Shown here piece after piece: positions 1 through 8,104 of a stretch of 64,000 nucleotides of DNA; the first letter of the stretch is position 1; each line of letters begins with the position of its first letter. Origin of the DNA: Caulobacter sp. (GTDB lineage Bacteria > Pseudomonadota > Alphaproteobacteria > Caulobacterales > Caulobacteraceae). The notes beneath the pieces were generated by a model. The model was given only the letters and a program-made list of their open reading frames with translations, was not told the origin of the DNA and made no database searches. Location of the stretch: NCBI GenBank assembly GCA_021741355.1, contig JAIOXZ010000012.1, positions 18,409 to 82,408 on the forward strand, given 5' to 3'. The translations under genes were made by a program, and so were the position numbers.

Positions 1-668
1 GCCAGGCCGATGGCCTCCGACACGCAGGCCATGGTGTTGGCGGTGAACATCCCGCCACAGGCGCCGTCGCCCGGACAAGCGTGCTGCTCGACCTGACACA
101 GGCGCTCTTCGGTGATGGACCCGGCGGAGAACTGGCCGACGGCCTCGAACACGTCCTGGACCGTCAGGTCCTTGCCGTCGAGCCGGCCGGGCAGGATCGA
201 GCCGCCATAGAGGAACACGCTCGGCACGTTGAGGCGCAGCATCGCCATCATCATTCCCGGCAGCGACTTGTCGCAGCCCGCGACGCCCACGAGCGCGTCA
301 TAGCCGTGGCCGCGCATGGTCAGCTCGACCGTGTCGGCGATGGCGTCGCGGCTGACCAGCGAGCTACGCATGCCCTCATGGCCCATGGCGATGCCGTCGG
401 TGACGGTGATGGTGCAGAACTCGCGCGGCGTGCCGCCGGCCTTCTTCACGCCCTCGGCGACCGCATGCGCCTGGCGCATCAGGGTCGTGTTGCAGGGCGC
501 CGCCTCGTTCCAGCAGCTGGCCACGCCGACGAACGGCTGGGCGATCTCCCGCGTGCCCAGGCCCATGGCGTAATAGTAGGAGCGATGCGGCGCGCGGGCC
601 GGGCCCTCGGTCACATGCCGGCTGGGCAGTTTCGACTTGTCCCAGCTTCCGTCCGGCTTCCTGGCCAT
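1..668 (-). CDS. ilvD: dihydroxy-acid dehydratase (5' part; runs off the left edge)
   Basis: Manual translation from ATG 668: MARKPDGSWDKSKLPSRHVTEGPARAPHRSYYYAMG...VASCWNEAAPCN...TVTDGIAMGHEGM...GCDKSLPG, which are IlvD motifs. Not listed in the ORF track (open-ended). Confidence 0.95.
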   Translation of the reverse strand, partial: MARKPDGSWDKSKLPSRHVTEGPARAPHRSYYYAMGLGTREIAQPFVGVASCWNEAAPCNTTLMRQAHAVAEGVKKAGGTPREFCTITVTDGIAMGHEGMRSSLVSRDAIADTVELTMRGHGYDALVGVAGCDKSLPGMMMAMLRLNVPSVFLYGGSILPGRLDGKDLTVQDVFEAVGQFSAGSITEERLCQVEQHACPGDGACGGMFTANTMACVSEAIGL

Positions 669-729
669 GGTTCTCGCTCCCGATTTTCGCGCGTTGGGGT
701 TAGCGCAGCAGGCGTCCGGGCGAAAGAGC

Positions 730-1845
730 CTAGGCGAGGAAGGCGTCAGCGATCCGCTGGGCGGGCTGCAGGGGATCGACGTCGATCTGGCCGAGGTTGG
801 TCAGAACGGTGACCGCCAGCGCCTCGTCCGGCAGCATCATGACGATGGACCGGCCGCCGACAATGCTGCCGGCATGCCAGGCGCGGCGACGCCCCTGCCC
901 GTCGGTGTCGACCTCCCAGGCGATGCCGAAATTGCCGCCGCCGGGCGTCCGGGCGCGATTGACGGTGAACATCCCGGCGCGGGCCTCAGGGCCCAGATAG
1001 CCGGGCCGGGTCAGGGCGCCGCAGAATCGCACCACGTCCGGCGCCGCGCCCAGCAGGCCGCCGGCCGGCCACTTGTAGGCCGGATTGATCGGCGGACAGC
1101 GGATGATGTTGGTCAGGTCCGGATAGACCGGCTGGTAGTCGCTGACCCGGCTGGCGACCGCGGCGCCGCGCACTTCCGGCGCGATACTGGCCAGGGCGAG
1201 CGGGCGGGTGACCTCCTCCGACAGCAGGCGGGGAAAGGCCTTGCCCGTCGCGGACTCCAGAACGGCGCCGAGCAGCACATAGCCGAAGCTGGAATACCGC
1301 ATCATCTCGCCGGGAGGGGCGATCAGCGGATCGTCGATGAAGATCGCCAGCTTGTCTTCGGTGTGAAGGTAGGTGCGAGCGTCGATCGCGCCGCCGGGCG
1401 CCGCCGGGTCGACGTCCCTTGGAATGTAGTGACGGATCCCCGCCTGATGGCTGGCGAGCTGGCGCAGCGTGGTGTTCTGGTGGGCCGGCGGCAGGTCCGG
1501 GCGATAGCGGCTGATCGGCGCGTCGAGGTCGATCACCCCCTGCTCCGCCAGGCGCATGACAAGCGCGCCGGTCATCACCTTGGAGACACTGGCCAGCCGG
1601 AACCGGTCCTCGGACGTCGCCGGCAAGCGCGCCTCGAGATCGGCCATGCCGAACGCTTCGCTCCAGACCAGCCCGCCGTCGTGCCAGACCGATACGGACG
1701 CCGCGGGGAACGGCGCGCGCGCCATCAGCTCGCCTGCGACCGCCCGCGCGCGGTCAGCCGCGTCCGTCTGCGCCCGCGCCAGGCCGGGGCCGGCGAGCGT
1801 CAGGGCGGCCGGAACCGCCAGAAGGGAGCGCCTGGAGATCTTCAC
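730..1845 (-). CDS. serine hydrolase, beta-lactamase class C/AmpC-like family, Tat-exported
   Basis: SRRSLL twin-Arg signal; FRLASVSK (SxxK), YSSFGY (YxN-like) and WHAGSIVG motifs. Confidence 0.88.
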   Translation of the reverse strand: MKISRRSLLAVPAALTLAGPGLARAQTDAADRARAVAGELMARAPFPAASVSVWHDGGLVWSEAFGMADLEARLPATSEDRFRLASVSKVMTGALVMRLAEQGVIDLDAPISRYRPDLPPAHQNTTLRQLASHQAGIRHYIPRDVDPAAPGGAIDARTYLHTEDKLAIFIDDPLIAPPGEMMRYSSFGYVLLGAVLESATGKAFPRLLSEEVTRPLALASIAPEVRGAAVASRVSDYQPVYPDLTNIIRCPPINPAYKWPAGGLLGAAPDVVRFCGALTRPGYLGPEARAGMFTVNRARTPGGGNFGIAWEVDTDGQGRRRAWHAGSIVGGRSIVMMLPDEALAVTVLTNLGQIDVDPLQPAQRIADAFLA

Positions 1846-1848
1846 CGC

Positions 1849-2325
1849 CTACAGCGCGCCCTCGATCGCGGCTTTCAGCTCGGCGTCGTCCGGCGTGGTG
1901 CGCGGGCCGAACACGTTGATCAGCGACCCGTCCTTGCCGACCAGCAGCTTGTGGAAGTTCCACACCGGCTCGGCCGGCTCGCCGACCTCGGCCACCGCCC
2001 ATTTGTAGAACGGGTGCGCGCCGTCGCCCTTCACGTCGACCTTGCTGGTCATCGGGAAGTCGACGCCGAAGTTGGTGCGGCAGAATTCCTGGATGTCCGC
2101 TTCCGTGCCCGGCTCCTGCCCGGCGAACTGGTTGCAGGGCACGCCCAGCACCACCAGCCCCTGGTCGCGGTAGTCCTTGTAGAGCCGCTCCAGCCCGTCG
2201 TACTGCGGCGTCAGCCCGCAGGCGCTGGCCACATTGACCACCAGCACCACCTTGTCCCTGAAGGTCGTCATCGGCAGAGCCGAGCCGTCGATGGCGGTGA
2301 AGTCGTAGTCGTAGGCGGTGGTCAT
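1849..2325 (-). CDS. glutathione peroxidase
   Basis: VNVASACGLTPQY, GVPCNQF, WNFHK motifs; start taken at MTTAYDYDF (ATG 2325, GGAG upstream). Confidence 0.95.
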   Translation of the reverse strand: MTTAYDYDFTAIDGSALPMTTFRDKVVLVVNVASACGLTPQYDGLERLYKDYRDQGLVVLGVPCNQFAGQEPGTEADIQEFCRTNFGVDFPMTSKVDVKGDGAHPFYKWAVAEVGEPAEPVWNFHKLLVGKDGSLINVFGPRTTPDDAELKAAIEGAL

Positions 2326-2392
2326 GCGAGGGGCTCCGTGGCTCTGCGGGACTATACCCGCCCGATCACGAAGACCAATGCCCCCCAAAACC

Positions 2393-2490
2393 CCGCTCAT
2401 CCTCGCGGAAGCGAGGACCCAGGTTTACGGCAGGTGCACTCACTTCAAGGGATGCCTGGCTCCCGGACGGGACATATGCTCGGGATTGCT
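2393..2490. repeat. REP-like palindrome doublet (copy A 2393-2439 plus degenerate inverted partner 2455-2490)
   Basis: CCGCTCATCCTCGC-GGAA-GCGAGGACCCAGG hairpin; partner CCTGGCTCCCG...CGGGATTGC. Confidence 0.85.
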
Positions 2491-2514
2491 AAAAGTGGAC
2501 CTACTTCTTATAAT
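2486..2514 (+). promoter_or_regulatory. sigma70-type promoter for the GIY-YIG gene
   Basis: TTGCTA (2486-2491), 17-nt spacer, TATAAT (2509-2514), 35 nt upstream of ATG 2550. Confidence 0.7.
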
Positions 2515-2549
2515 TGTATTTCTGGCAGTCGCGCGCGCTTGAGCCCCCT

Positions 2550-2834
2550 ATGCCCTTCTACGTCTACATCCTCGCAAGCCAGCGGATCGGCACCCTCTAC
2601 ATCGGGTCCACCGACAACCTCGTGCGACGGGTCGGTGAACACCGCGAAGGGCTGATCCCGGGGTTCACCAGCCGCTACCGCGTGAAGATGCTGGTCTGGT
2701 ACGCGGTATTCGAGACCCGCGACGACGCCTTCCGCCGCGAGCGGCAGATGAAGGTCTGGCGCAGGGCCTGGAAGATCGAACTGATCGAGAAGACCAACCC
2801 CGGATGGCGGGACCTGTATCCGGAGATTTGCTGA
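2550..2834 (+). CDS. small stand-alone GIY-YIG nuclease
   Basis: MPFYVYILAS...TLYIGSTDNLVRRVGEH...FETRDDAFRRERQMKVWRRAWK; 94 aa with YVY/YIG motif and conserved R and E. Confidence 0.92.
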   Translation: MPFYVYILASQRIGTLYIGSTDNLVRRVGEHREGLIPGFTSRYRVKMLVWYAVFETRDDAFRRERQMKVWRRAWKIELIEKTNPGWRDLYPEIC

Positions 2835-2847
2835 GCGCCCAAGAAGC

Positions 2848-2977
2848 CCGCTCATCCTCGTGCAAGCAAGGACCCAGGCTTTTCGATGCAGCAGCTCGCC
2901 GCGGTGATTGGCGAACAGCGGCTGACGTGCGTGCACCGGCCGTAAACCTGGGTCCTCGCTTCCGCGAGGATGAGCGG
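2848..2977. repeat. REP-like palindrome doublet (degenerate forward copy B 2848-2883, inverted copy C 2931-2977)
   Basis: Reverse complement of 2931-2977 matches copy A at 46/47 nt. Confidence 0.9.
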
Positions 2978-3083
2978 AAAAAAGGGGGAAGTCAGCAGCC
3001 CGTCAGCTGTTCGCGTGAGGGGCAAAGGTCAGGAAGGGGCTTAAAGCGGTCCCCCTGCGAGAAGCGCAACAACCCCCTAAACT

Positions 3084-3160
3084 CCGCTCATCCTCGCGGA
3101 AGCGAGGACCCAGGTTTACGGCAGGTGCAATCACCTCAAGGCCGATGCACTCACCTCAAG
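3084..3160 (+). repeat. REP-like palindrome copy D with a short internal tandem duplication
   Basis: 3084-3130 matches copy A at 46/47 nt; followed by TCACCTCAAGG twice (from 3131 and 3151). Confidence 0.9.
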
Positions 3161-3224
3161 GAATGTGTGGCGCCAGCAGGGCCAAACCATCGATGGCGGT
3201 GAAGTCGTAGTCCGAGGCGCTCAT
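3156..3224 (-). pseudogene. 5' stub of glutathione peroxidase (MSASDYDFTAIDGLAL...stop)
   Basis: 3190-3212 is identical to 2288-2310 (23 nt); its ATG overlaps the upstream ORF stop (ATGA); the frame stops inside repeat D. Confidence 0.75.
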
Positions 3225-3703
3225 GGATGGCTCTTCAGCGGGCTCCCGCTTCGCCGGCGCAGAGACATGGGCCAAGGCTCGTCGGGGAATAGTTCAACCT
3301 TAACACCGGCGCTGGTCACGGCGACCGGACTCCAGCCCGGGCACTCGTGGGCGTTTCGTCTTGAACCAAACTTGAACACGATGAGATGCCCGGTGGGCTT
3401 GTCCGCCACCGCGTAGGCCACCCCCTCCGGATCCCCTCGGTCGCAACCGGGATACTCTTCGAGCACCGCCGCCAAGGCTTCGCCAATCCGGGAATAGACA
3501 GCCTGATCCCTCGTCGGGAGGTAGAATTTGATCGGCGTCTCGCCATCGACGGAGGCGTTCACGGCGAACAGGTCGTTCATGTTCGCAACGACGGACTCGC
3601 TGGGATACAGCGCGAGTTGCGGCTCAGACGCGCGGGCAGGCGGGGTCGCCAGGATCACGAATGCCATAATGGGAAGCGCCAACGGGCGTTGACGGCCGAC
3701 CAT
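3221..3703 (-). CDS. hypothetical protein with probable signal peptide
   Basis: ATG 1 nt after the Gfo stop; N-terminus RQRPLALPIMAFVILATPPARA; two Cys; no motif recognised. Confidence 0.55.
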   Translation of the reverse strand: MVGRQRPLALPIMAFVILATPPARASEPQLALYPSESVVANMNDLFAVNASVDGETPIKFYLPTRDQAVYSRIGEALAAVLEEYPGCDRGDPEGVAYAVADKPTGHLIVFKFGSRRNAHECPGWSPVAVTSAGVKVELFPDEPWPMSLRRRSGSPLKSHP

Positions 3704-3704
3704 G

Positions 3705-4604
3705 CTAGAACCCCGCAGCCTGCTCAACCGCCAACGCCAGGTCCAGAGCCCTCGCCGCTTCCTGGCCCGTCACCACCGGCCGTGGCGACAGCCCCCGCAC
3801 CGCCGCCACGAACCCGGCGACGCTGGTTCCCAGCGGGTCCTTGCCCGCCGGCGTCTCCGTGAACGCCTCGTTCAGCGGGAACGGGGTGCTGTTCTTGAAG
3901 GCCCGGGTGACGAAGTCGATCTCCAGGACGCCCGACGGATAGACGATCCGCATGGTCCGCTCGCGCGCCTGCGCGTTGCGGGCGGCGGTGAAGATGGCGG
4001 TGAAGCCGTCGCCGAAGATCGCCTCGGCGCGGATGTCGTTTCCGTCGCCCTCGGCCTCGACGGCCAGCGGCTCAGCGTCGGTCAGCGACAGGGCGAGATC
4101 AATGTCGTGGATCATCAGGTCGAGCACCACCGACACGTCCTTGCTGCGGATCGACGGCGTGCCTTTTCGAACGGCCTCCAGCAGCAGGGGTTTTTCCGGG
4201 ATGTCGAGCAGGCCCATGGCCTGGGACACCACCCGCTCCTGATGGCCGCAGGCCAGCACCAGACCGCCTTTGGTCGCCGCGGCGATCAGGGCGTCGGCGT
4301 CCTCCAGGGTCGTGGCCAGGGGCTTTTCGACATAGACCGACCTGCCCGCCTTCAGGCAGGCCAGGGCCGCCGCGGCATGGGTCGTGGCCGGCGAGGCAAT
4401 TGTGACGATGTCGCAGGCGGCCAGCAGGTCATCCAGATCGCCCCAAGCCTCGACTCCGTGCTGTTCGGCCATGGCGAAACAGCGCTCGGGATGGACATCA
4501 TAGATGCCGGCGAGCTGGACCCCGTCCATCTCGGCGTACTTTTTCGCGTGATAGCCGCCGAACACGCCCGACCCGACGACTCCGGCCTTGAGTACCTTTT
4601 CCAT
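3705..4604 (-). CDS. Gfo/Idh/MocA family oxidoreductase
   Basis: GVVGSGVFG Rossmann motif, YVEKPLA, DLMIHDID. Confidence 0.92.
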   Translation of the reverse strand: MEKVLKAGVVGSGVFGGYHAKKYAEMDGVQLAGIYDVHPERCFAMAEQHGVEAWGDLDDLLAACDIVTIASPATTHAAAALACLKAGRSVYVEKPLATTLEDADALIAAATKGGLVLACGHQERVVSQAMGLLDIPEKPLLLEAVRKGTPSIRSKDVSVVLDLMIHDIDLALSLTDAEPLAVEAEGDGNDIRAEAIFGDGFTAIFTAARNAQARERTMRIVYPSGVLEIDFVTRAFKNSTPFPLNEAFTETPAGKDPLGTSVAGFVAAVRGLSPRPVVTGQEAARALDLALAVEQAAGF

Positions 4605-4697
4605 GGCCCGCTTCTAGCGCGGTTCGAAGGCTTCCGCGAGACCGGCAAAGGGCCTAAACAGTCGTTTGAAATTACACCGAAAATCGGGAGACCAACC

Positions 4698-5699
4698 ATG
4701 ACCGTGTCGCGCGAGATCCGCCTCAAGAGCCGCCCCGTCGGCGTGCCGACCGCTGACAACTTCGAGCTGGCGACCGTCGAGCTGCCCGCGCCGGGCGCCG
4801 GCGAGGTCCAGGTGCGCAACACCTGGATGACCGTCGATCCCTACATGCGCGGCCGCATGAACGACGTGAAGAGCTACAGCCCGCCCTTCCAGCTGGGCAA
4901 GGTGATGGACGGCGGCGCGGTCGGCGAGGTGATCGCCTCCAATGACCCGTCGTTCACCGTCGGTGATCTGGTCCAGAGCGGCTTCGGCTGGCGCGAGGCG
5001 TTCAACGCCCCGGCCTCGGCCGTGCAGAAGCTCAACACCTTCGGCCTGCCGCCGCAGACCTTCCTCGGCATCGCCGGCATGCCGGGCATGACCGCCTGGG
5101 TCGGCCTGCTGAAGATCGCCGCACTGAAGGACGGCGACGTCGTCTTCGTGTCCGGGGCTGCCGGCGCTGTGGGTTCGGTCGTGGTGCAGATCGCCAAGAT
5201 CAAGGGCCACACGGTCATCGGCTCGGCCGGCGGCGCGGAGAAGGTCGCCTTCCTCAAGTCGATCGGCTGCGATGAGGTCATCGACTACAAGGCCGAAGCG
5301 GACCTGACCGCCGCCCTCGCCCGCGTCGCGCCCAAGGGCATCGACGTCTATTTCGAGAATGTCGGCGGCGAGCACATGGACGCGGCCATCGCCAACGCCC
5401 GCCCGTTCGCCCGCTTCGCCCTGTGCGGCATGATCAGCCAGTACAATTCGACCGGCGAGATGCACGGCACGAAGAACCTGATCCAGGCGGTCGGCAAGAG
5501 CCTGAAGCTGGAAGGCTTCATCGTCTCCAACCACTTCCAGCACATGCCCGAGTTCCTGCAGGACATGTCCGGCTGGATCAACGACGGCAAGCTGAAGTGG
5601 ACCGAGACCATCGACGAGGGCATCGAGAACGCCCCCGGCGCCTTCCTCAAGCTGTTCAAGGGCGAAAACACCGGCAAGATGCTGGTCAAGCTGAGCTGA
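4698..5699 (+). CDS. NADP-dependent oxidoreductase (MDR, prostaglandin dehydrogenase/CurA-like)
   Basis: TVDPYMRGRM, GMPGMTAWVGL, VSGAAGAVGS, YFENVGG, NTGKMLV. Confidence 0.92.
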   Translation: MTVSREIRLKSRPVGVPTADNFELATVELPAPGAGEVQVRNTWMTVDPYMRGRMNDVKSYSPPFQLGKVMDGGAVGEVIASNDPSFTVGDLVQSGFGWREAFNAPASAVQKLNTFGLPPQTFLGIAGMPGMTAWVGLLKIAALKDGDVVFVSGAAGAVGSVVVQIAKIKGHTVIGSAGGAEKVAFLKSIGCDEVIDYKAEADLTAALARVAPKGIDVYFENVGGEHMDAAIANARPFARFALCGMISQYNSTGEMHGTKNLIQAVGKSLKLEGFIVSNHFQHMPEFLQDMSGWINDGKLKWTETIDEGIENAPGAFLKLFKGENTGKMLVKLS

Positions 5700-5705
5700 C
5701 GGCGC

Positions 5706-5783
5706 GGGGACATGTACCAAAGGTACGTGTCCCCCAATCGAGCAGTCTGGTTTAGGGGACACGTACCTTTGGTACATGTCCCC
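5706..5783. repeat. inverted doublet of 29-bp palindromes, probably terminator-acting
   Basis: GGGGACATGTACCAAAGGTACGTGTCCCC (5706-5734) and its exact reverse complement (5755-5783); 20-nt spacer. Confidence 0.9.
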
Positions 5784-5882
5784 GACGGCTTCCCCATCAC
5801 GAACGCGCGGGTTGTGAAGGCCGCGCTTCCTACGGCGGCCCGCGAAGGCTAAAAGCCCCGCCAATCTTTGGAGGGATAGCCC

Positions 5883-6788
5883 GTGTCGCGCCTTTTCAGC
5901 GCCTATGTGATGGTCGACTGGAGCGCCGCCGCCGCACCGCGGACGGGCAAGGATTCCATCTGGATCGGCGTCATCAAGCGCGACATCCGTTTTCGCCCGA
6001 CGTTCGAGGCGTTCAATCCGGCCACCCGCGACGAGGCGATGAAGGTGCTCGGCGATGTCCTCGCCGACCTGCGCCGCCGCAACGAGCGGGTGCTGGTCGG
6101 GTTCGACTTCGCCCTGGGCTATCCGGAAGGCACGGCGGCGAAGCTGGCGCTGAAGTCGCCGGACTGGAGCGGCCTGTGGGCGTTCATGGCCTCGAACGTC
6201 GTCGACAAGCCGACCAACGTGAACAACCGCTTCGCCGTCGCCGCCAAGATGAACCGGCTGATGACCGACCAGCCCTGGCCGTTCTGGGGCTGCCCGGCCA
6301 ATGACGCCCAGCGCTGGCTGACGACCACCAAGCCGGAGGCCGACGCCAGCGGCCTGCCGCAGCTGCGTCGCGCCGAGACGCTGACCCCGAGCAAGGGCAA
6401 GGGCGGCGCGAAGACCGTCTGGCAGGTGTTCGGCAACGGCACCGTCGGCAGCCAGGCCATCGTCGGCATCCCGCGCGTCAAGGCGCTGGCCGACCAGATG
6501 GGCGACAAGGCGAAGGTCTGGCCGTTCCAGACCGGCTGGAAAACCCTCACCGCTGCCGACGTCGAGGGCCTGGAAGCCGTGTTCGCCGAAGTCTACCCGG
6601 CGCTGGTCGAGGCCCGACCTGAGCCCGGCGAGGTCCCCGACCGCGCCCAGGTCCGCGCCCTGTGCGAGCACTTCCTCAAGCTCGACGAAGCCGGCGAACT
6701 GGGCGCCGCCTTCGGACCGGGCGCCGGCGCCGAGCCGGACGTGGTCGCGGTGGTCGAGGCCGAAGAAGGCTGGATCCTCGGGGTCTGA
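5883..6788 (+). CDS. conserved hypothetical, DUF429-like predicted RNase H-fold nuclease
   Basis: VDWS near the N-terminus, VGFDFALGYP, AEVYP motifs; GTG start. Confidence 0.5.
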   Translation: MSRLFSAYVMVDWSAAAAPRTGKDSIWIGVIKRDIRFRPTFEAFNPATRDEAMKVLGDVLADLRRRNERVLVGFDFALGYPEGTAAKLALKSPDWSGLWAFMASNVVDKPTNVNNRFAVAAKMNRLMTDQPWPFWGCPANDAQRWLTTTKPEADASGLPQLRRAETLTPSKGKGGAKTVWQVFGNGTVGSQAIVGIPRVKALADQMGDKAKVWPFQTGWKTLTAADVEGLEAVFAEVYPALVEARPEPGEVPDRAQVRALCEHFLKLDEAGELGAAFGPGAGAEPDVVAVVEAEEGWILGV

Positions 6789-6868
6789 CCCGAATGCGGC
6801 GCGTCGGCGATTGACTTCCGCCGACCGCCGTTCACCCTCCCCGCATCATCGCCTGGGGAGGCGCGCCG

Positions 6869-8104
6869 ATGACCACCGCCACTGAACGCTTCGGATCCAT
6901 TGACGCCGTCCGCGGCTTCGCGGTGCTGGGCATCCTGCTGATGAACATCGTCGGCATGGGGATGCCGACGTTCGCCTACGTCGATCCGACCTACTACGGC
7001 GACCTGACCGGCGCGAACTTCTGGGCCTGGGCGATCAACTTCGTCGTCACCGACGGCAAGATGCGGGCGCTGTTCACCATGCTGTTCGGGGCCAGCATGC
7101 TGCTGATCGCCGACCGGGCGGAAGGGCGTACGCCGGGTCCGGCCGCAACTCACTACCGCCGGGCGTTCTGGCTATTCGTGATCGGCATGATCCACGCCTA
7201 CTTCCTGTTCTTCGGCGACATCCTGGTCTGCTACGCCATCGCAGGCGCGATCGCGTTCGGCTTCCGCAAGCTGGGGCCGCGCGCTCTGATCCTGCTGGGC
7301 GTGCTGATCCTGGCGGGGCTGCTGGCCTACAAGATCATCGACGCGCAGCACCTCCACGCCCTGCAGGCGGCGGTCGCGGCGAACACCGCCGACGCCACCC
7401 AGCTCGCCCAGTGGAAGGAGGCGCAGCTGTTCCTGAACGCCCCTGCGGAGATGGGCGCCACGGAAATCGTCAAGATGCGGGGCGACTTCTTCGACGCGCT
7501 GGAGAGCCGGGCGTATGCGGCGCTGATCGTCCAGCTGGGCTACCTGCCGCTGGACGCCATCCCGGAGGCCGTCGGCCAGATGCTGATCGGCGCGGGCCTG
7601 TTCCGGCTGGGCTTTTTCACCCTCGGCTGGTCGAGCCGGGCTTACGCGGCGATGATCGCGGTCGGCTACCTGATCGGCGTGCCGGTGACGGCCTGGCTGT
7701 GCTGGTCGACCGTCGCGGCCGACTTCGAACCGGTGCGGCAGCACAGCCTGTTCGTGCTCACCGCCGCCCCTCGCCCGTTCATCGCCCTGGCCCACGCCAG
7801 CGTGCTGATGCTGGTCATCCGGGCCGGCGCTCTCAAGGTCCTGACCAACCGGCTGGAGGCCGCCGGGCGGATGGCGTTCAGCAACTACCTGATGACCTCG
7901 ATCATCACGACCTTCGTCTTCTGCGGCTTCGGCTTTGGCCTCTACGGCCAGCTGGAGCGGCATGAGCTCTACTATGTGGTGCTCGGCGTCTGGGCGTTCA
8001 TCCTGTTGTGGAGCCGGCCGTGGCTGGCGCGGTTCCAGTACGGGCCGTTCGAGTGGATCTGGCGCTCGCTGGTGATGTGGAAGCGCCAGCCGTTCCTGAA
8101 ATAG
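6869..8104 (+). CDS. DUF418 (YeiB-like) membrane protein
   Basis: IDAVRGFAVLGILLMNI; GRMAFSNYL; QYGPFEWIWR; multiple TM segments. Confidence 0.9.
   Translation: MTTATERFGSIDAVRGFAVLGILLMNIVGMGMPTFAYVDPTYYGDLTGANFWAWAINFVVTDGKMRALFTMLFGASMLLIADRAEGRTPGPAATHYRRAFWLFVIGMIHAYFLFFGDILVCYAIAGAIAFGFRKLGPRALILLGVLILAGLLAYKIIDAQHLHALQAAVAANTADATQLAQWKEAQLFLNAPAEMGATEIVKMRGDFFDALESRAYAALIVQLGYLPLDAIPEAVGQMLIGAGLFRLGFFTLGWSSRAYAAMIAVGYLIGVPVTAWLCWSTVAADFEPVRQHSLFVLTAAPRPFIALAHASVLMLVIRAGALKVLTNRLEAAGRMAFSNYLMTSIITTFVFCGFGFGLYGQLERHELYYVVLGVWAFILLWSRPWLARFQYGPFEWIWRSLVMWKRQPFLK

Follow-up and report, generated by a model that had tools for sequence, protein, structure and literature searches.

We analysed a stretch of 64,000 nucleotides from Caulobacter sp. 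(contig JAIOXZ010000012.1, positions 18,409 to 82,408), called the window below, in which a gene for a 94-amino-acid GIY-YIG nuclease is surrounded by copies of one hairpin repeat. As judged from sequence comparison, the locus is very probably an ssn-SRM module, in which a nuclease gene of the Ssn family is accompanied by its cognate repeat, the Ssn-related motif (SRM). The Ssn family was defined by Chenal et al. (Nat Commun 2025; PMC11893778) as single-domain GIY-YIG proteins (CDD cd10448, GIY-YIG_unchar_3), with the 94-amino-acid SsnA of N. meningitidis as the prototype. SsnA binds the repeat NTS (CGTCATTCCCGCGMAVGCGGGAATCYRG) solely as single-stranded DNA (ssDNA) and in one orientation, cuts a few nucleotides upstream of it and has no cleavage activity on double-stranded DNA (dsDNA). 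Mutation of Y6, Y17 and E64 abolishes cleavage, and binding depends most on the C after the NTS palindrome. In vitro, binding and cutting of ssDNA beside the protein's own repeat were shown for four members of the family, which come from three Neisseria species and Wolbachia. Using E < 1e-10 as the criterion of homology, the authors found an SRM near 71 % of Ssn homologues and on both sides of 42 %. They also described NTS variants (NTSvar), while the main text does not mention Caulobacter (PMC11893778).

The gene in the window, ssn (2550-2834, + strand), is the one proposed in a preliminary description of this DNA, and its product matches Pfam PF01541 (GIY-YIG) with an E value of 1.4e-15 over residues 3-76. 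No second domain was matched in the 94-amino-acid protein in Pfam, NCBIfam or PADLOC. The start codon at 2550 is supported because eight homologues all begin with M-x-x-x-x-Y-I, and the catalytic residues Y6, Y17, R27, H31, E64 and N83 are kept in the protein and invariant in an alignment of eight family members. The NCBIfam and PADLOC scans gave no model for the protein, so ssn is not a catalogued defence gene. Exact look-up of the protein in the assembly collection returned no record; the protein collection holds more than 5000 relatives, mostly 94-96 amino acids long. Many of these lie on short contigs, which is expected since the genes are embedded in repeats. The PDB sequence search gave no solved Ssn structure and only weak matches to the UPF0213 structures 1ZG2 and 1YWL and to SLX1 (E 7e-4 to 2e-3), which is consistent with the Ssn proteins being a separate subfamily.

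A direct comparison with the Neisseria ssn locus was possible because PLSDB contains gonococcal chromosomes. Two N. gonorrhoeae chromosomes of 2.17 Mb, L123 (NZ_CP119140.1) and NZ_CP119142.1, are filed there as plasmids. They were the best matches of the Caulobacter protein in a tblastn search (60 % identity, E 5e-28), and BLASTP against the gonococcal open reading frame (ORF) gave 54 identical residues out of 90 (60 %) with no gaps and an E value of 3e-39; both values are below the published threshold for the family. The gonococcal ORF is also 94 amino acids long, carries Y6, Y17 and E64 at identical positions and has nine exact NTS matches around it within 3.3 kb. Directly after its stop codon an NTS-like copy begins, and one of the Caulobacter repeats (copy B, see below) is placed likewise.

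The repeats themselves are comparable too. Counted from TCAT, 20 of 26 positions of the Caulobacter repeat equal the NTS consensus. Of the six that differ, four make up two compensatory changes of stem pairs (T-A to C-G and C-G to T-A), and the C after the palindrome is present. The oriented repeat of SsnA reads xxTCA, a 7-bp stem, a 4-nt G-rich/A-rich loop, the return stem and C-CYRG, and the repeat in the window reads (G)CTCA, a 7-bp stem, a GNAA-type loop, the return stem and C-CYRG. Both systems have a repeat copy at the stop codon and further repeats dispersed elsewhere, often as inverted pairs. The Caulobacter system differs from SsnA/NTS in its motif, GCTCA instead of CGTCA, in its TCCTCGC stem, in a copy number of the order of 10-20 compared with hundreds, and in its host, a free-living freshwater Caulobacter.

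Hairpin repeats and promoter-like site of ssn

Four copies of one hairpin repeat with the core TCCTCGC-GGAA-GCGAGGA surround ssn, copy A on the 5′ side and copies B, C and D on the 3′ side. Copy A (2380-2450, +) forms the left end of the cassette with its 5′ end outward. It consists of a C-run (2381-2386), GCTCA (2395-2399), the stem (2400-2406), the loop GGAA (2407-2410), the return stem (2411-2417) and CCCAGG (2418-2423), followed by a type-1 tail (TTTACGGCAGGTGCAC...) that reaches about 2462-2470. Copy B (2835-2881, +) begins at the ssn stop codon and has a type-2 tail (CTTTTCGATGCAGC...). It is degenerate (TCCTCGT-GCAA-GCAAGGA), with three mismatches in the 31-nt core and a broken hairpin, and is intact in the orthologous L095. 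Copy C (2923-2988, -) is inverted with respect to A and forms the right end of the cassette, again with the 5′ end outward; its core (2947-2977) is followed by A6 G5. Copy D (3061-3141, +; core 3084-3114) has a type-1 tail, a piece of which is tandemly duplicated at 3140-3181. This copy is absent at L095 and resembles a truncated second cassette that consists of the left end alone, with neither promoter nor gene.

Copies A, C and D share the exact 31-nt core CCGCTCATCCTCGCGGAAGCGAGGACCCAGG and fold as predicted into a 7-bp stem with a GGAA loop. Over the wider unit the pairs A/C, C/D and A/D (the last by direct reading) are each 46/47 identical, and in both the identities and the hairpin our results agree with the preliminary description. 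That description had also seen a doublet on each side of the gene. Downstream, the doublet of B and C and the further copy D are present, but upstream there is the single copy A and no second copy A′. Allowing up to three mismatches, the core matched four times in the window and not once in 100 shuffles. All four copies fall within 760 bp of ssn, and no others were found in the remaining 63 kb by core search, BLAST or a generic hairpin scan; the generic scan for TCA-stem-loop-stem-CYRG recovered A, C and D only.

Copies B and C form an inverted doublet (2848-2977) resembling a REPIN (a hairpin-forming doublet of repetitive extragenic palindromes, REPs) or a bacterial interspersed mosaic element (BIME). 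The 143-nt hairpin that it forms as ssDNA has a folding energy of -45.5 kcal/mol (z -6.4). The Rfam scan of positions 1-8000 gave only a chance miRNA match well below the gathering score, and the hairpins are therefore not a known RNA family. Intrinsic terminators were considered and rejected, as there is no terminator site and no T-run after any copy.

A promoter-like site for ssn, TTGCTA-N17-TATAAT (2486-2514, +), was confirmed and matches 10 of 12 consensus positions, being the only such site in 2250-3300. A real promoter is supported by five Caulobacter cassettes, in all of which the TTG of the -35 box and the TA of the -10 box are unchanged but the intervening spacer varies. The -35 box had been placed at the end of the upstream repeat, but it lies about 16-24 nt past the repeated or conserved part.

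Homologues and dispersal of the hairpin

The preliminary description had named homologues without flanking hairpins and a lack of co-variation as findings that would speak against it, and neither was encountered. Four homologues at 62-70 % identity, for which the flanks were available, are all bordered by hairpins in which both stem arms changed together. The stems are TCCCCGC/GCGGGGA, TCCCGGC/GCCGGGA and TTCCCGC/GCGGGAA, the last being the NTS stem, and in another homologue TCGCCCGC/GCGGGCGA with the canonical CGTCA. The flanks GCTCA and CCCAGG are constant while the stems co-vary.

A scan for the stem TCATCCTCGC-N4-GCGAGGACC with one genome per species resulted in at least 116 loci. Among the matches listed, the same stem occurs in Caulobacter, Lysobacter, Pleomorphomonas, Devosia, Sphaerotilus, Massilia and others, and is identical in Alpha-, Beta- and Gammaproteobacteria. 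An ssn homologue is present in nine of the 116 loci listed, each time 35-133 nt from a repeat, and the remaining 107 contain solitary copies or inverted doublets with a spacing of about 48 or about 100-108 nt. Truncated ssn copies stand beside SRMs at L116, L025 and L014. In 162 instances of this stem, drawn from many taxa, TCA is preceded by G in 70-79 % (GTCA, as in NTS); the CTCA of Caulobacter is therefore a local sub-variant. The five commonest loops (GCAG, GCAA, GAAA, GAAG and GGAA) are GMAV-like and account for 124 of these instances. A link to phages was rejected, with one weak protein match among 50,697 phage records and three SRM stretches in the 2.9 million viral contigs of IMG/VR.

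Some of the distant homologues are arranged differently. At L118 (1464-1840) and L122 (1464-1972) the upstream SRM is placed 13 nt before the ATG and follows a promoter-like AT-rich stretch, and the downstream SRM begins no more than one base from the stop codon. With about 355 bp, the minimal unit there would not carry its own promoter. At L117 both flanking SRMs are reversed, with their 5′ ends facing the gene.

The ssn cassette and its copy number

The five aligned Caulobacter cassettes come from the window, the syntenic L095, L028, L004 and L102. In all of them ssn and the outward-facing SRMs form a discrete cassette of 535-610 bp, which is thus found in at least four unrelated contexts (window/L095, L028, L004 and L102). 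On the left it is bounded by the C-run, a short A/T-rich stretch and CCGCTCA, and on the right by the mirror image. The short form, A(+)-ssn-C(-), of about 535 bp is found at L004 and L102, and the long form, A(+)-ssn-B(+)...C(-), of about 600 bp in the window, L095 and L028. The B-C doublet is also dispersed without ssn at many loci in other Caulobacter genomes. At the orthologous L036, the glutathione-peroxidase gene (gpx) is followed by a B-type/C-type doublet with no ssn. Relative to L036, the window has exactly one additional A-to-B period, which is 455 nt long and contains ssn. This difference fits equally well an insertion at the hairpin or a deletion by recombination between the direct repeats A and B. 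A flank match between L004 and L051 was considered as an empty site and rejected because it is inverted relative to the repeat.

Of the words sampled from 1850-3750, 88-89 % are present in two lake-water metagenomes, X1 and X2, where the depth is about 32 in one and about 21 in the other and the unitigs break at the repeats. The unitig of the 35-nt core has a depth of 600 and 286, which gives about 19 and 14 copies per genome-equivalent; these are upper bounds, as other community members may contribute. No cassette-less or excised variant of the locus was found in X1 and X2. A 504-nt skip (2426 to 2931) in a low-depth contig of another metagenome, X6, was set aside, the simplest explanation being a close-spaced doublet elsewhere. 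X1 also contains a second ssn variant (2725-2926) with six differences in 115 nt and a similar depth, in which a C-type inverted SRM follows directly after the stop codon, as in the short form with no copy B. It may be either a paralogue in the same genome or come from a related strain. The organism is represented only in DNA metagenomes (X1 and X2), and the only RNA runs matching the region are wastewater metatranscriptomes with 11 % of the words.

Assignment to the Ssn/SRM system and proposed action of the nuclease

Several points weigh against the assignment of the locus to the Ssn/SRM system. The gonococcal ORF was taken as the SsnA orthologue from its length, its Y6, Y17 and E64 and its NTS flanks, and the homology test used this ORF, not the published N. 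meningitidis NMV_0044 sequence. The published SRM string (HGTCWYN(0-2)YYVSBRHN(0-5)WNVSBRGN(0-2)RNCYNB) has no match in the window, and the published NTS regular expression has no literal match there. The SRM string misses the repeat because of GCTCA in place of CGTCA/xGTCA and because of an A in the 3′ stem; this string is a search tool rather than a definition. The SRM copy number is low, with none in the other 63 kb, and a genome-structuring role as in Neisseria is doubtful for a repeat with about 14-19 copies per genome-equivalent at most. The transformation phenotype of Neisseria may also not carry over, because Caulobacter is not known to be naturally competent. In Neisseria the role of SsnA is the restriction of incoming transforming ssDNA (PMC11893778).

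If it behaves like the four Ssn homologues that were assayed in vitro (PMC11893778), the Caulobacter nuclease would recognise the folded hairpin together with its asymmetric flanks, on ssDNA only and in one orientation, and would hydrolyse the strand a few nucleotides 5′ of the GCTCA motif. For copies A and D this predicts top-strand cuts around 2389-2393 and 3080-3084, respectively, and for copy C a bottom-strand cut immediately right of 2977. The predicted substrates are the intact copies A, C and D, and copy B is probably a decayed, poor site. In the cell, SRM-bearing ssDNA could thereby be processed site-specifically, for example when strands enter, replicate or recombine. The preliminary description had suggested that the nuclease is the dedicated partner of the palindrome family, which spreads or maintains it. 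The partnership is backed by the SsnA-type homology, the co-varying stems and the published in-vitro cutting by four Ssn proteins; the support for the spreading role is indirect.

Possible mobility and alternative explanations

Within the Ssn family one could still propose that the locus is an autonomous mobile element, in which Ssn excises and spreads the SRM-ssn-SRM cassette and the gene-less doublets are non-autonomous derivatives similar to REPINs or to miniature inverted-repeat transposable elements. Such an explanation is compatible with Ssn membership and is a rival only on what the nuclease is for. We consider it unlikely. The following points are in its favour: the cassette is bounded exactly by outward-facing SRMs in four unrelated contexts, truncated ssn copies remain beside SRMs at three loci, 107 of the 116 SRM loci listed have no ssn and many of these are inverted doublets, the stem is identical across three proteobacterial groups, and the doublet at L036 differs from the window by exactly one ssn-containing period. 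Moreover, the conserved ends of the doublets coincide with the SRM 5′ ends, where Ssn is expected to cut, and the spread of the repeat by Ssn was raised as a hypothesis by Chenal et al. (PMC11893778). Against it stands the inversion of the flanking SRMs, which places the predicted cuts on opposite strands, whereas in IS200/IS605 elements one and the same strand is cut at both ends. DNA cleavage by GIY-YIG nucleases is hydrolytic and passes through no covalent intermediate, and no strand-transfer step is known for them. No target-site duplication was seen, and the two metagenomes gave no excision or empty-site variant of the locus. The cassettes are 81-85 % identical in DNA, a divergence similar to that of the orthologous genes around them, and thus show no trace of recent movement. 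Homologous recombination of the direct repeat A with B would explain the difference from L036 equally well. The earlier idea that the nuclease spreads the repeat therefore stays where the literature left it, as a hypothesis, and what we can add are several contexts of the cassette and gene-less doublets. Somewhat less likely again is a still-active selfish element of a new mechanistic type, in which a hydrolytic GIY-YIG enzyme nicking ssDNA would rely on replication, repair or ligation by the host to move the cassette and its gene-less doublets to new sites, and in which SRMs would act as gene-swapping junctions.

The preliminary description spoke of a REPtron-like unit with a GIY-YIG nuclease in place of a REP-associated tyrosine transposase (RAYT), which fits the architecture but not a demonstrated mechanism. 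As in RAYT/REP-REPIN systems (REPtrons) and with IS200/IS605 TnpA, a single-copy nuclease gene is flanked by hairpins it recognises, recognition takes place on ssDNA, and the repeats are dispersed as inverted doublets folding into long hairpins (the B-C doublet folds in this way, and gene-less doublets are present at many loci). However, no HUH (Y1) transposase lies between the repeats. The protein is a GIY-YIG nuclease alone, and Ssn is hydrolytic, whereas the HUH/Y1 enzymes use covalent 5′-phosphotyrosine chemistry. The comparison is an architectural analogy only, because a hydrolytic GIY-YIG enzyme has no known strand-transfer chemistry. REPtrons are reportedly the subject of work by Nunvar (2010), Bertels & Rainey (2011) and Ton-Hoang (2012).

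Two other explanations are poorly supported. The gene could be a free-standing relative of homing endonucleases, which cuts SRM-adjacent DNA lacking the gene and is copied in by recombinational repair. Homing endonucleases such as I-TevI and Seg do use GIY-YIG domains and share with Ssn the catalytic fold and the Tyr, Tyr, Arg, His, Glu and Asn residues. The gene is always beside an SRM in the nine loci listed, and at the orthologous site the states with and without ssn differ by a segment that starts and ends inside the hairpin. On the other hand, the protein is a bare catalytic domain of 94 amino acids without the DNA-binding domain of GIY-YIG homing enzymes, the locus is chromosomal and intergenic with no intron or phage context, and the great majority of the SRM sites listed are unoccupied. 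The family is also rare in phages, as given above, and the tested members, including SsnA of Neisseria, do not cut dsDNA (PMC11893778). We find homing very improbable.

The last explanation is a coincidence, in which the hairpins are ordinary REP, terminator or regulatory sequences and the ORF, unconnected with them, encodes a UPF0213/YhbQ- or Slx1-type nuclease for general repair. Intergenic DNA often contains small GC-rich hairpins, and UPF0213 (YhbQ, BH0048, EF2693) and Slx1 have a similar size and a single or core GIY-YIG domain, with the weak structural matches mentioned above. The similarity is marginal, however (E about 1e-3), the NTS-flanked Neisseria ORF is far more similar, and we know of no cognate repeat for UPF0213 or Slx1. 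The four copies found in 64 kb are all close to ssn, no T-run or Rfam family points to a terminator or a known RNA, and the stems co-vary next to homologues. The published association of Ssn homologues with SRMs, nearby and on both sides, also speaks against it (PMC11893778). A coincidence is already contradicted by these data and is hardly credible.

Genes and repeats next to the cassette

The slot between copy C and a gene for a Gfo/Idh/MocA-like oxidoreductase (3705-4604, -) differs in all three relatives. It contains about 48 bp at L095 (7115-7163), an ORF for a dioxygenase-like protein of 273 amino acids at L036 (4031-5561), and copy D, the duplicated tail, a gpx remnant and a signal-peptide ORF in the window (2989-3705). 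The remnant (about 3170-3224, -) comprises about 17 codons of the 5′ end of gpx (MSASDYDFTAIDGLAL...), is joined to the tail of copy D and shares 86 % DNA identity with the beginning of the intact gpx (2274-2317). The signal-peptide ORF, ORF168 (3221-3727, -), encodes 160-168 amino acids and has no Pfam match; its stop codon and the ATG of the remnant overlap in the sequence ATGA (3221-3224). The remnant points to a rearrangement junction at the SRM, where a former ORF168-gpx operon was broken. Together with the variable slot, this remnant at copy D suggests that SRM sites may act as recombination junctions that swap neighbouring genes, and the slot recalls the variable gene cassettes beside the dRS3/NTS repeats in Neisseria.

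A second, unrelated palindromic repeat is located at 5706-5783. Its two 29-nt arms (GGGGACATGTACCAAAGGTACGTGTCCCC), 20 nt apart, are each nearly palindromic, and as ssDNA it folds with -43.8 kcal/mol (z -11.6). The same repeat is present in Caulobacter L011, L038 and L055, at 0.4-3 kb from SRM doublets.

Significance

A minimal GIY-YIG nuclease is indeed paired here with its own hairpin repeat, but such a pairing was described and biochemically tested in 2025, and the locus opens no new category. The preliminary description knew of no biochemical characterisation of such a pairing, but this was published in March 2025, including the analogy to RAYTs, as the authors likened Ssn/SRM to IS200/IS605, RAYTs and REP/BIMEs (PMC11893778). 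Our analysis extends the Ssn/SRM system to a free-living Caulobacter with a GCTCA/TCCTCGC motif variant. As the published string misses this variant, the reported association of 71 % is probably an underestimate. New here are the GCTCA variant itself, the cassette in four unrelated contexts and the gene-less doublet at the orthologous site in one relative. The locus also provides a new enzyme/site pair for the ssDNA-tool applications proposed by Chenal et al. (PMC11893778). The orthologous loci, with the ssn cassette, the gene-less doublet and the differing slot genes, could help to decide how SRMs spread and whether they act as recombination hotspots.

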